From contig OZ024757.1 in the NCBI GenBank assembly GCA_964016885.1, forward strand, positions 12,276,001 through 12,340,000: a stretch of DNA of 64,000 nucleotides. The letters are read 5' to 3'. The notes under the pieces are model-generated. The model was given only the letters and a program-made list of their open reading frames with translations. It searched no databases and was not told the origin of the DNA. This DNA is from Eledone cirrhosa. Taxonomy: Eukaryota. The translations under genes and the position numbers were made by a program. Below, one piece after another: positions 1,013 to 57,600 of the stretch (positions are counted from its first letter, which is position 1; each line of letters begins with the position of its first letter).

Positions 1013-1151
1013 TTAGAAAGTGAGGGTTTTTTTACAAATTGAAAAATAACCGAGGTGTCCTACACGAGTGAAAGCATAAAGAAAAAGAGATGAAATCGAA
1101 AATGAAACTGGAGTCTTATTTTTTTTTTTAAATATATATATTTATTTGATT

Positions 1152-1189
1152 CCTTTACCGGTTTCGCAGTTCTTCTGCTTTTCAAAAGG
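1152..1189 (-). ncRNA. Variant hammerhead (U3-A8 core), mirror copy
   Basis: Reverse complement of 1262-1299. Confidence 0.7.
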
Positions 1190-1261
1190 TGAGTTGAGAT
1201 GGAGGGTCTGTGGTTTTTCTCACAGATGTGAGAAAAACCACACACCCTCCATCTCAACTCA

Positions 1262-1299
1262 CCTTTTGAAAAGCAGAAGAACTGCGAAACCGGTAAAGG
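1262..1299 (+). ncRNA. Variant hammerhead (U3-A8 core)
   Basis: CCTT-TTGAAAA-GCAG aagaa CTGC-GAAAC-CG-GTA-AAGG. Palindromic ACCGGT stem III, AATAAA at 1305-1310. Confidence 0.75.
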
Positions 1300-2129
1300 A
1301 ATCAAATAAATATATATATTTTTAAAAAAAAATAAGACTCCAGTTGCATTTTCGATTTCATCTCTTTTTCTATATATATATATATATATATATATATATA
1401 TATATATATATATATATATATATATATATATATACTCACACTTACAGATACAGAGGAGCTGTTGGCCAAATAACTTTAGATATCAATGGGTTAAAGACAT
1501 ATGTAAAATCAATTAGAGGTCAGTTCTTCAGTCTAAAGTCCCTTGGAGAATGTCACCAAGTAATGTGTGTACAAGTTGAAAACATGTATTTATACATATC
1601 TATAAATCTCTATATATGTACATATACACACATACACCCACTCCCAGATATATATATTGAGTGAGTGTGAAAGACCAAAGGTCATTATTGAAAGTCTCTG
1701 GATGTGTATATTTCACAAGTTATTTTATATTTTTTATTGGAGAAGATAAGACCAGTCACTTGCACACTCTACTCTAAATAACAGTGTTGTACATTCACAA
1801 TTATTTAAAATTACAATCATAACATTCTGTATTAACATTTAGTATTACTGTATACTGCTAGTAATATGTACTATATATATACACTTTATTTAGTAAAAAA
1901 AACATTTTTCCTGCAAAAATTTGATTGCACTGTTTTGTTTTCACTTATGTATTTTTTGAAAATGTAATTTATTCATCATAAAAATTAAATGATAGCATTC
2001 TATATGTGGGTGGGCACCTTTTATCTCCTGGCAACCAATATTTTTAGACCTAGTCCACCACTCTATCTCTCTCTCTCTCCCTCTCTCTCTATATATATAT
2101 ATATCGTCAGTCGATCGACTTTCATCAAA

Positions 2130-3350
2130 TTGGACCGAGGAAACATTATTTCCAATTACTAATACTATCTAAAGCTCCTTGGACATGAGATGAACCCATC
2201 CAAGTGTGAGGCAACAAACGTCAGCTACAGAGAAGCTGAATTCCACAATGCCATACTCAGCACCCATCCTGTCCTGTCCGGGCCCTGGCTAACACCCAAA
2301 GACCTCGCATGCATTCTCACCTCTCCATTTCTCTCAAAAGCCATAAGAGAATACTTGGGGAACTGCTTCGCCCTCCCCAAATTTATGTTCATGCTGCGCG
2401 GTGCACCTTGCCACCCACGCACGGATCTTCTTGGAGAACTTGACGCCACCATCCAATGTTGTGCAGAACTCATCTGCAATGTCAGTTTCAACAGCACCGA
2501 CTGGCAACAGGCAAAGATCCTAGTGAGGTTTGTTGCCCTCGCCTCCAATCAGCTTTCGATCTGGCTCTACCTGCGTACCATTCCTCAATCTCCTCCAGTC
2601 GTGTTCTCATCAACCAGGTTCTCAGCCAGATGACCAAACCAGATGTGGTCCCAGGGATTGAACAGGCTCTGGCCGACTGGACAGGCGAAGGCTCCTCTGC
2701 CCCCAAGTATACAAATATCCAACGCAACTAGGACGACATCAAATGTAGGTGTACTTTCAGTCTGGCTTAGACAAACACCACCTCACCTGCTTCCACTCCG
2801 CCTCACAGCCAAAAATCAGAGTGTGTCTCAATTCGGTGCCCTCCTCATAAACTGGTACACTTCGTGGTGACAAGTGCACTCACATCAGAAAGGCACAATG
2901 CCTCGGCTTCTGCGTGTATGTGTTACACAAATGCCGTTGTAGGGCAGTCATAGTCAAGCTCTGCATGCATCCACTGTGTTGCTGCCAGAGTACAGGCTGG
3001 TTCCCCCAACATACCGCTCTCAACGACATATTGAGAAGGAACCTGGACGGAACTGACTTCTCATCACAACTGGAGTCAGCGGGCCTTGACCACGGAGATA
3101 GCAAGTGCCGTGATGGAATCAGCCTCTTCCCATTCGAAGGAGGTAGATCCCTCATTAACACCGTGCCCTAGTCCCAGACCCTAATCACCTTCCCCATTCT
3201 TCTGTGACTCTAGAGCCCTTCGGTTTCCCTTTCTTTGCCATTTAAAAAAAATATTTTCTTATTTTACATTCCATTCTTTCTTCTCAATCTAAATTGTTTT
3301 ATTCATTTTCGATGTCGACGATTGAACAGATCTTATAAAATAAATATATA
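2130..3350 (+). mobile_element. Decayed CRE-like non-LTR retrotransposon (RT C-terminus and restriction-like endonuclease)
   Basis: Frameshifted ORFs containing WQQAKILVRF, DLALPAYHSS, CRC..HPLCC, HTALNDILRR, LESAGLDHGDSKCRDG. Confidence 0.65.
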
Positions 3351-54769: not shown

Positions 54770-56697
54770 TCCTTAAGATGTGTATGACGAGAAAGAAGAC
54801 GTTTTTGAGTCGTATGACATAGATGATAACTGGAATTTCTTACTTGACAACTTACTGCAGGCTACTGAAGAAACTTGTGGCTGGAGCAGAGCTCCAACCA
54901 GACAGAGAGTGACCTGGTGGTGGAACAGCACAGTAGATAAGCCATTAGAGACAAAAGACTAGCATGGAAGGCTTGGAAAAATGGTGGGAGTAGAGACCGA
55001 TACACAGCTGCTAAGAAAGAAGCTAGACGTCAGGTGTACTTAGCACGCACGGAGGCTGAGAGTAGGAGGTTTGCCAATGTTCTGTGAGGGGAAGATCAGA
55101 GGCGTGCGGTGTTCCACATTGCAAGGCAGTGTGTCAGTGTAAATCAGGATGTTGTTGGAGATAAGTGTGTCCGGAATGATGCCAGTGTACTTAGTGTTAC
55201 GACTTATCAAAAATAGGAGGCCTGGAAATGTCATTATGAGAGGCTGATGAATGTGGAGAATGAATGGGAGAGAGGGAAACTATCCCCAGTAGACCCGACA
55301 GAGGGACCAGCTATTGAGATTGGCGAATATAGTGTACAAGAGGCAATTAAAGAAATGAAGAATGGTTAGGCAGCTGGACCATCCGGGATAGTTGCTGAGA
55401 TGCTGAAGCCATCAGAAGTAGGCACTAAACTGGTTGCACACATCATATGGTGGTGTCATACCCAAAGCCTGTTGCAGCAGTATTCTCATAAATTGGTACA
55501 AAGGTAAAGGGGATGCTCTGGAGAGGAGCAATTATATGGGCATAAAGCTGATGGATCAGGTTATGAAAGTGGCAGAGAGAATATTAGCACATCAGTTGTG
55601 CTAATAGAGAAAGGGTCAAATTAGATGAGATGCAGTTTGGTTTTGTGCCTCAGAAATGTACAAAAGATGCCCTCTTCTTAGTGAGACAATTATAAGACAG
55701 GCTCTTAGAGAAGAATAAGCCACTATACTTAGCTTTTGTTGACCTAGAGAAGGCCTTTGATAGGGTACCTCGTGCTGTCATCTGGTGGTCCCTAAGGAAA
55801 CAAGGTGTAGAGGAATGGCTTGTGAGGACAGTGCAAGCTATGTTCAGGGATGCTATCAGTAAATTGAGAGTAGCAATGGGGTCTAGTGAGGAGTTCCGGA
55901 TACAAGTAGGTGTACATCAGTGTTTGGTCCATAGCCCATTCTTGTTCATTATAGTCCTCCAAGCCATAACAGAGGAGTTTAAGACTTGATACCCATGGGA
56001 ACTTCTCTATGCTGAATCTGGTTCTTATAGCAGAATCAGTAGAGGAGCTAGAGAATAAATTCTGGCTATGGAAACAGCAGTTGGAACAAGAGGACTGAGA
56101 GTGAACATAGAGGAACTGAGAGGACAATACTCTGATTCCATCAGGGAAATGGCCATGTTCGATATGCAGAAAAGGAACTGGCATAAATGCTATAAAATGT
56201 ACGTAATGCAGATCTTAGGTACACAAGAGATGTAGCGGGATAGCAGGCAAACTAACAGATAGGGAGAAATATGTATGCAGTACATATACAGGGAAATTAG
56301 ACAGTAGAAGTCGAATTGATAGACACATTTTTCCAATGCATGTGGCTCTATAGAAGTGGTTGATAGCTTCCGGTACCTAGGTGATCAGATTAGCATGGGA
56401 GGAGAGTGTTCCGAGGCCATAGTATCTAGAATAAGGACGGGTTGGAAGAAGTTTAGGGAGCTGCTTCCTCTGTTGACAAAGAAGGGTTTCTCCCTGCGTA
56501 CGAAAGGCCGGTTATATGATGCCTGTGTGAGATGTGCAATGCTGCATGGTAGTGAGACATGGGCAGCAACTACAGAGGAATTACCTACAGAGGGCTGTGA
56601 CAAGTGGAGAGATGCTGTGCTGAATAGGACCCCACCCCCTTGCAAGCAGAGAAAAGTGCACGTAAAATAATGATGATGATGATGATGATGATGATGA
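54770..56697 (+). mobile_element. Decayed RTE LINE with internal deletion and (ATG)n tail
   Basis: TWWWN, KGKGD, FVDLEKAFD, FRYLGD, MLHGSETW remnants. 3' tail shared with the SINE. Confidence 0.85.
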
Positions 56698-57259
56698 ACA
56701 TAAGCATAACAAAAGTCTATAAAAGCTAGTGCATGGATCAAATATAAATTTAAGAATGTAAAAATAAATTTTCAAAGTATATTTTTAATATATTTATAAT
56801 AAAAAGTTCAACTACATCTTTCAGTCTTAAGTATATAGATAATCTGTTATACTTCAAATGTAATAATTGTTTCTACATTTGGCACAAGGCCAGCAATTAC
56901 CCCAGTGCATTACTGGTACTTTATTTTATCGAACCCGTAAGGATGAAAGGCAAATTTTTCCTCGGCATGATTTCAACTCAAACAGTAAAGGGCCGTAACT
57001 CCATGCTGCAAAGCATGGTGTCCAACCCTCTACCAATCCACTGCCCTAGTCAAGGTGTAATAATAACAATAATAATATTAGGGCTAATGATTATACAACT
57101 AGAGAATTATTTTTAAAATTATTAATAATAATTTTACAATAATATATTACCAAATACAATAAAATAATTTATCAATGTAGAGTAAAAAGCTGAATATTAT
57201 TAAAATTTATAAAAAAATTAATACAAAAAATGTTATCAAAAAATGTTATTAGTAAATTA

Positions 57260-57345
57260 TATTTCAGCTCTGTATTATATTTGTTGTTTTACATTGAGCT
57301 ATTGTCATACTTGTAATTGGATAATATTTAATATTACCCACATTA
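57260..57345 (+). mobile_element. PLE-type tail remnant
   Basis: AGCTC-TGTA...TACA-TT-GAGCT (57266-57300) plus a second hairpin, then TA repeat. Confidence 0.5.
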
Positions 57346-57360
57346 TATATATGTATATAT

Positions 57361-57600
57361 CCAGGGAGTGTAACACGGAGTTACTGTAGGTTCATCTGGG
57401 TGAGCACTCCATCTTTAGGTTCACGTCTGTAGTGAAGTGTAGAGCTAGACAGAGTGTAATACAAGGTTACTCCTTCATTACTTTTATTGGTTGGTGACAC
57501 ATGTTTCGTTATTGATCAGCTCATGGTTTGATCTGTATTGATACAGATCAAACCATGAGCTGATCAATAGTGAAACGTGCGTTACCAACCAATCTAAACT
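57361..57600. mobile_element. Small head-to-head palindrome (57486-57593) of hammerhead 3' halves with left tail
   Basis: ATGA-GC..-GAAAC-nnnn-GT(C/T)-ACCAACC in both arms, AATAAA in the left arm. Confidence 0.55.

Follow-up and report, generated by a model that had tools for sequence, protein, structure and literature searches.

Seven palindromes in one genomic window of Eledone cirrhosa, mostly paired, truncated Penelope-like element copies joined head to head in TA microsatellites

Introduction

Endonuclease-bearing Penelope-like elements (PLEs) show a canonical layout in which a partial tandem forms a pseudo-long terminal repeat (pLTR), an inverted 5'-truncated copy lies beside the element, a tail of 30-40 bp is often present at one end only, and microsatellite targets hide the target duplications (Craig et al., 2021; PMC8557442). 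The same source reports (TA)n insertion for almost all families of the Hydra clade and calls the formation of tandem and inverted PLE structures an open question, and a curation guide lists inverted pLTRs and short extensions as routine (PMC8969392). Here we describe a window of 64,000 nt of Eledone cirrhosa DNA (GCA_964016885.1, contig OZ024757.1, positions 12,276,001-12,340,000 of the forward strand; all coordinates below are window positions) holding seven palindromes that are mostly paired truncated PLE copies, placed head to head in TA microsatellites. The initial annotation of this DNA was right to present inverted pseudo-LTR layouts and microsatellite targeting as known for PLEs: both are published, including for the Hydra clade (PMC8557442).

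Two other systems are close to the present case. For Pen2a, Pen2 and Pen3a of Adineta vaga, head-to-head is the commonest inverted form, short palindromes occur at 5' ends, and self-priming on an antisense template was favoured (Arkhipova et al., 2013; PMC3846280). The protein of the Anolis Poseidon element PAc cuts and extends both target strands in vitro, at an ATT motif; it uses two start sites on the RNA that delimit the tail, needs no homology between RNA and target, and is predicted to act as a dimer (Frangieh et al., 2024; PMC11167929).

Results

Seven head-to-head palindromes

Self-comparison of the window found inverted repeats at all seven sites where head-to-head palindromes had been proposed, far beyond chance and with boundaries right to within a few bases. 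We call them P1 to P7, from left to right. Their arms measure 53-2,935 nt and are about 90-100% identical (identities and centre lengths come from arm alignments). The features are as follows, together with a solo copy that served as outgroup for comparisons of the P3 arms; ORF stands for open reading frame and RT for reverse transcriptase.

P1, 1013-1371: arms 1080-1224 and 1227-1371, 97% identity, 2-nt centre; tail 1013-1079, right arm directly into (TA)n; a degenerate hammerhead in each arm; no ORF
P2, 9818-10343: arms 9940-10139 and 10144-10343, 99% identity, 4-nt centre; presumed tail 9818-9939; no ORF or hammerhead; candidate PLE by layout alone
P3, arms 11233-12416 and 13079-14262: 1,184 nt each, 99.6% identity, 662-nt centre
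P3 long arm, 11233-13081, minus strand: tail-less; C-terminal part of a Hydra-type GIY-YIG endonuclease (~12779-13081) and a 3' region with a degenerate hammerhead
P3 short arm with tail, 13079-14424, plus strand: arm 13079-14262 and 162-nt tail 14263-14424, the tail being present in the 38-kb copy too
P4, arms 14996-16609 and 16675-18287: no mismatches in 1,613 nt, one indel, 65-nt centre
P4 short arm with tail, 14941-16609, minus strand: 55-nt tail (14941-14995); thumb and endonuclease ORF 15525-16609
P4 long arm, 16620-18287, plus strand: tail-less; ORF with a CX4CxxC linker and two Cys inside GIY-YIG; hammerhead core at 18039
P5, arms 22086-22700 and 23667-24304: 96.6% identity, 966-nt centre
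P5 long arm, 22089-23666, minus strand: tail-less; C-terminal part of a Hydra-type endonuclease at 23307-23669
P5 short arm with tail, 23667-24381, plus strand: arm 23667-24300 and 81-nt tail
P6, arms 45784-48722 and 49468-52410: 99.6% identity, 745-nt centre
P6 long arm with tail, 45702-49467, minus strand: 88-nt tail (45702-45789); RT and endonuclease of Hydra type, split by frameshifts into three pieces (47400-49467); core of a hammerhead at 45891
P6 short arm, 49468-52404, plus strand: tail-less; open frame over the C-terminal half of the RT and the endonuclease (49470-50789)
P7, 57361-57593: arms ~57486-57538 and 57541-57593, about 90-91% identity, 2-nt centre; presumed tail 57361-57485; older, with no (TA)n on the right
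38-kb copy, 38145-40727, plus strand: solo tail-bearing copy of the P3 family, ~90% identical to P3

The ORFs of P3-P6 read from the centre outward, and the hammerhead-like motifs near the outer ends of P1, P3, P4, P5 and P6 point outward as well; the layout is therefore head to head. The outward 3' ends proposed at first are borne out in P3-P6 by the direction of their ORFs and in P1 and P3-P6 by hammerhead-like motifs; P7 offers a 3' half-motif of a hammerhead recognised by eye alone, and P2 no such motif. No second P2 copy exists within the window. The assignment to PLEs fares similarly: coding sequence establishes it for four of the seven (P3-P6), hammerhead remnants suggest it for P1 and P7, and P2 has its layout only.

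One-sided tails and TA flanks

In each of the six TA-flanked palindromes, P1-P6, one arm runs directly into (TA)n and the opposite arm first continues for 55-162 nt (67, 122, 162, 55, 81 and 88 nt, in order). Once these tails are included, all 12 outer ends meet (TA)n, so that the earlier claim of (TA)n on both flanks of the first six stands if one side is extended by the tail; the intervals as first drawn omitted it. On the left of P7 lie a presumed tail of ~125 nt and degenerate TA; its right side has no TA. Of random positions, only 10% have a TA array within 170 nt, though the arrays cluster; every PLE-like insert of the window lies in or beside TA-rich repeats, and there are no non-TA targets in it.

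If tailed and tail-less ends were picked independently at even odds, one tail per palindrome in six of six would have a chance of 0.016. The P3 tail is common to the 38-kb copy and ends there on the same base, and hence is element sequence. As for the tail-less end of P3, a contig of sequencing run X5 (n=1) becomes TA repeats exactly at 14262. We infer that the extensions in P1, P2, P4, P5 and P6 are tails too, given how few random positions lie so near a TA array. Of the four asymmetric palindromes, P3, P4 and P5 carry the tail on their shorter arm and P6 on its long arm. The likeness to the canonical PLE layout (PMC8557442) lies in the inverted 5'-truncated copy, the tail at one end and the microsatellite target; the differences are the length of the tails (55-162 nt versus 30-40 bp), the lack of a true pLTR, and the truncation of both arms, which makes the whole insert palindromic.

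At the six tail-less ends of P1-P6, the overlap in TA phase is 1, 4, 5, 4, 0 and 2 nt, a sum of 16 against 6.7 expected (P=0.048), which weakly suggests that pairing over a few bases may be of help.

Tails and 3' ends of several families also share a short conserved motif (14258-14424, 855-958, 10392-10520 and 57260-57345), and in the read comparison sequence from other families attaches to the P3 reference at ~14258, the start of the tail. This motif may be a protein-binding or start element. A metagenome scan with a tail motif as query gave no matches.

Junctions and centres

The overlap at the P3 junction is exactly GTT (13079-13081), a 3-nt microhomology, as had been noted at the outset; the 38-kb copy and a loose end in run X1 (three contigs) supply the native sequence to either side. 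P4 is joined differently:

P4 junction filler, 16610-16619: 10 nt out of the element reading frame

In P4 homologues 18-19 residues separate the catalytic DD from the next conserved block, and by this spacing native sequence in the right arm would reach back to 16620, with the 10 nt as filler. We sought a nearby origin for the filler and rejected it, a 7-nt match to adjacent sequence being within chance. In P1, P2 and P7 the two arms end within 2-4 nt of each other; all three short palindromes have loops of 2-4 nt, and all four long ones have spacers of 65-966 nt.

Polarised with the 38-kb copy, the five differences between the P3 arms split into two on the left and three on the right; the arms were therefore probably identical at the start. 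In the P3 spacer (12530-13022) at least six letters differ from both the reads and the 38-kb copy, and the arms differ from each other by five, possibly through arm-to-arm conversion.

Families, coding sequence and hammerheads

Clade names are given here on the basis of motifs and homologue alignments. P6 encodes an RT with the motifs DKT and YRDD plus a GIY-YIG endonuclease, the single-ORF arrangement of RT and C-terminal endonuclease. P4 retains thumb and endonuclease, with YxDD upstream in all seven long homologues, and P3 and P5 retain the endonuclease end only. The Naiad layout, with the endonuclease N-terminal to the RT, was considered and discarded, the endonuclease being C-terminal in P3-P6. 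Homologues number 83 for P6 and 74 for P4; the few that carry names, at 32-49% identity, belong to cephalopods, a coral and a bivalve symbiont record.

P6 and the 38-kb copy have a CxCX5C linker, no Cys pair inside GIY-YIG, and CxxC and CxH; P3 and P5 have CxxC and CxH. DKT or DKS is found in 30 of the 31 P6 homologues of at least 600 aa (DKT replacing DKG), and DKT is present in the N-terminal piece of P6. None of the 24 scorable homologues has two Cys inside GIY-YIG, and 27 of the 31 long homologues carry an N-terminal R-W/F-K/R motif, P6 itself being truncated ahead of the RWK motif site. By these motifs the P3/38-kb family, P5 and P6 appear Hydra-clade-like, and these copies (P3, P5, P6 and the 38-kb copy) are inserted in (TA)n. 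They share with the Hydra clade (PMC8557442) DKT, CxCX5C, a GIY-YIG without the Cys pair, CxxC and CxH, as far as each copy reaches, and (TA)n insertion; they differ in the AT-rich 3' region of P6, much longer than in the <3-kb elements described, and in hammerhead cores that are partly degenerate. P4, with its CX4CxxC linker (present in six of seven long homologues) and two Cys in the C-terminal GIY-YIG (CCHH pattern), appears Neptune/Nematis-like, the two being left unsplit. It shares with such PLEs, as does the copy at 41.4-42.8 kb, the CX2-5CxxC linker and the two Cys in a C-terminal GIY-YIG. Asn-rich in-frame linkers occur in the P6 ORF (49950-50100) and in the ORF of the 38-kb copy (38420-38640).

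A strict hammerhead core with a 7-17 nt spacer is found in P4 and in the solo copies at 705-958 and 10392-10641; the spacer is 31 nt in P6, and P1, P3 and P5 have a degenerate core. Single-strand folds lack a full hammerhead for most candidate motifs, and an Rfam scan of the window gave no hammerhead among 150 of 185 matches listed, which were chance microRNA-type hairpins and one tRNA-like match. Pfam recognised no family in seven PLE-like window ORFs and gave no meaningful match for eight homologues; a PDB search with the PLE protein alignment A1 returned no matches, and a metagenome scan with the P6 protein confirmed none of 191 candidate stretches. In P1, P2 and P7, tblastn gave no match to the 83 P6 homologues or to two window ORFs, none being expected from arms of 53-200 nt. 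Nor is there a direct 3'-end repeat inside any insert, as a partial tandem (direct pLTR) would have; such a repeat would lie at the 5' end, which none of the truncated copies reaches.

Solo copies and other repeats

Besides the 38-kb copy, the window holds three PLE-like inserts without an inverted partner, and a long interspersed nuclear element (LINE):

705-958, plus strand: second solo copy of the hammerhead-bearing family of 10392-10641; 3' end in (TA)n
10392-10641, minus strand: solo 5'-truncated hammerhead-bearing copy, (TA)n on both sides, no inverted partner
41430-42765, minus strand: 5'-truncated Neptune/Nematis-type PLE with RT, CX4CxxC linker and frameshifted endonuclease; 5' end abuts (TA)n, 3' end lost in simple repeats
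18697-21750: LINE with apurinic/apyrimidinic (AP) endonuclease and RT and a 5' inversion; 5' part (endonuclease to RT start) on the minus strand, 3' part on the plus strand from ~20515, with a small reading-frame gap between

All four solo PLE-like inserts (705-958, 10392-10641, 38145-40727 and ~41.4-42.8 kb) adjoin TA-rich repeats, and none has a second 3' end. At its 5' end the 38-kb copy carries a 21-bp hairpin (38145-38187), directly next to TA-rich DNA. Both outer ends of the LINE meet TA-rich repeats, no palindrome is formed, and the arrangement looks like twin priming. Twin priming, reportedly described by Ostertag and Kazazian in 2001, has both target strands prime on the element RNA, with joining by microhomology; the LINE copies two non-overlapping segments and yields no palindrome, whereas in the PLE palindromes both complementary DNAs (cDNAs) would cover the same segment.

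A further inverted pair (28678-30663, ~75% identical) was rejected as a PLE palindrome: it consists of tail-to-tail decayed LINE-like 3' fragments (28400-30663). The window also contains a 47-bp imperfect palindrome at the end of a minisatellite (8838-8884), to which we made no PLE link; dispersed-repeat copies with a tRNA-like head, similar to short interspersed nuclear elements, at 24400-24730 and 62985-63315 (Rfam tRNA match 63236-63293); and a short, shared hairpin-like repeat ending in CTAG beside TA repeats (45420-45461 and 202-243), which we take to resemble a Helitron-type 3' end. Two long ORFs of 780 and 656 aa on the plus strand (31283-36325) are probably a host gene; in them an NHL-repeat match, weak and below cut-off (E 0.005), precedes coiled-coil-like repeats.

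Reads over the P3 region

Fifteen sequencing runs are on record, none labelled RNA, which says nothing about expression. Four of them were compared with reference positions 12417-14424 (24 of 1,855 pieces and 40 of 410 rows of the read-difference table are listed); run X1 may be the source sample. The P3 family was found in all four, and in X1 the hammerhead and tail region is covered several times as deeply as the body. Opposite-strand joints linking 12417-12462 to 13079 were rejected as inversions, since they reflect the cut point of the reference (native continuity). Four other strand-switch joints, at 13470, 13481 and 13664 (run X13, a restriction-site-associated DNA (RAD) library, a type that can be chimeric) and at 13565 (X5), may be further inversions. 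Base changes in the four runs, which are DNA or of unrecorded type, show no A-to-G excess.

Discussion

Two cDNAs joined at their truncated ends: a somewhat probable origin

Each complete case combines one tail-bearing and one tail-less 3' end at (TA)n with two 5'-truncated ends joined centrally. The best fit, and in our judgement a somewhat probable explanation, is that two target-primed cDNAs, one from each start site, were joined at their truncated ends, the palindromes being ordinary single-event insertions of endonuclease-bearing PLEs. What favours it is the position of the tail, on the shorter of the two arms in P3, P4 and P5. Neither arm of these three can be a plain copy of the other, since the tail is absent from the tail-less strand, and the spacer from the short one. 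The initial proposal of two cDNAs joined head to head is thereby retained, without the need for the (TA)n cause that had been attached to it.

In such a scheme the PLE protein, probably a dimer, would nick both strands within a (TA)n tract, and each 3'-OH would prime a cDNA on the element RNA, with a tail if the outer start site is used and without one if copying begins at a start site 55-162 nt inward. Both cDNAs would end early, sometimes at the same template point, and their free ends would be linked through pairing of a few bases (GTT in P3), through filler (10 nt in P4) or nearly end to end (P1, P2 and P7), before the gaps are filled. (TA)n would be the preferred cut site of these clades, and its self-complementarity may help without being the cause of the inversion. 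The Poseidon protein PAc (PMC11167929) offers a parallel in its two RT start sites bounding the tail, its use of both target strands and its AT-rich target; it differs in belonging to another clade, in cutting at ATT and in showing no strand difference in start site, and inverted insertions are left unexplained in the available text. The Adineta PLEs (PMC3846280) resemble the present ones in head-to-head layout, one-sided tail and Asn-rich linkers, but insert outside microsatellites with target duplications of 8-10 bp (9-10 bp for inverted copies).

More tentatively, one PLE dimer may copy the same RNA twice, with one subunit per start site and target strand. This would give exactly one tail per palindrome, and the halves would often end at the same broken RNA end. 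If true, it would connect the two start sites seen in vitro with inverted structures that have long gone unexplained, a single rule holding in at least two clades. A literature search that left aside older subscription papers and the supplementary figures of PMC11167929 did not find the rule stated.

Several observations weigh against two joined cDNAs, or against their reach. P2 may not be a PLE, and the tail is verified from another copy for P3 only. The 21-bp hairpin of the 38-kb copy is a fold-back signature, so fold-back does occur in the P3 family. The 2-4 nt centres of P1, P2 and P7 would require independent stops to match so closely, at P=0.01-0.04 each; to account for three such near-equal stops, the two-cDNA model therefore has to assume that a single broken RNA end stopped both cDNAs. 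In vitro, the two strands showed no difference in start site (PMC11167929), hence a strict rule of one tail would not be expected. Finally, none of the 24 pieces listed of 1,855 spans the P3 junction in its joined form.

Alternative explanations

The strongest competitor, which we regard as possible though less likely, is a single cDNA primed at the tail end that folds back at its 3' end and is copied as far as the tail-less site, where resolution of the intermediate would give a nearly perfect palindrome, the long palindromes later losing an off-centre piece and being left with a spacer on one arm or the other. Long palindromes can be stabilised by off-centre deletion. The tiny loops of the three short palindromes beside the 65-966 nt spacers of the four long ones are as expected under this process, as are the hairpin at 38145-38187 and the position of the P6 tail on the long arm; self-priming has been proposed for head-to-head PLEs, on an antisense template (PMC3846280), and long palindromes with a short spacer are unstable (PMC7999016). 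Its costs are a second, later event in three of the four long cases, including P4 with its 1,613 nt free of mismatches, and a tail-less end that matches a demonstrated RT start site of another PLE rather than a stop point (PMC11167929).

We consider it unlikely that the self-complementarity of (TA)n caused the inversions, with both cut strands pairing with the RNA and priming, as first suggested. That all outer ends of P1-P6 lie at (TA)n, that the TA-phase overlap exceeds expectation, and that the LINE at 18697-21750 in TA-rich DNA also appears primed from both strands are consistent with the idea. Such pairing is nonetheless not required: the overlap is 0 nt in P5 and 1 nt in P1, the four other PLE-like inserts touch TA-rich repeats and lack a second 3' end (the solo copy 10392-10641 lies between two (TA)n arrays), Adineta has inverted PLEs at targets other than microsatellites (PMC3846280), and priming in vitro needs no homology (PMC11167929).

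Still less credible is host repair after insertion, by fold-back at breaks near fragile (TA)n, or an origin of the short palindromes, mainly P2, as miniature inverted-repeat DNA transposons at TA. Fold-back duplications at breaks can start from short inverted repeats (PMC7999016), and P2 has no ORF, hammerhead or second window copy. Break repair would, however, have copied tail and flank too, and the second arm stops instead at a recurrent family end; P2, for its part, has the same one-sided extension as the proven PLE cases.

An assembly or read artefact from fold-back chimeras, which the substitution-free arms of P4 and the lack of a listed contig or read across the P3 junction might suggest, is very improbable because the arms differ by 0.4-9% in six of the seven palindromes, the end points and flanks of the two sides are not the same, and the tail-less end of P3 recurs in another run (X5).

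Implications

The architecture itself is already known; new are the families and a closely packed series of cases whose tail is one-sided throughout and frequently lies on the short arm. The chance of secondary structure falls as spacers lengthen (PMC7999016). Cruciforms would accordingly be plausible mainly for P1, P2 and P7, and perhaps P4, and the 662-966 nt spacers argue against them in P3, P5 and P6. Read-through transcripts would be expected to fold back whatever the spacer length, and the arms of 0.2-2.9 kb, being 97-100% identical, would be a source of long double-stranded RNA if they are transcribed. The window packs seven inverted cases from several families, with ends and centres that can be mapped, beside four non-palindromic copies and an apparently twin-primed LINE. 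A genome this dense would allow tail position to be counted against arm length, separating the two-cDNA and fold-back models.

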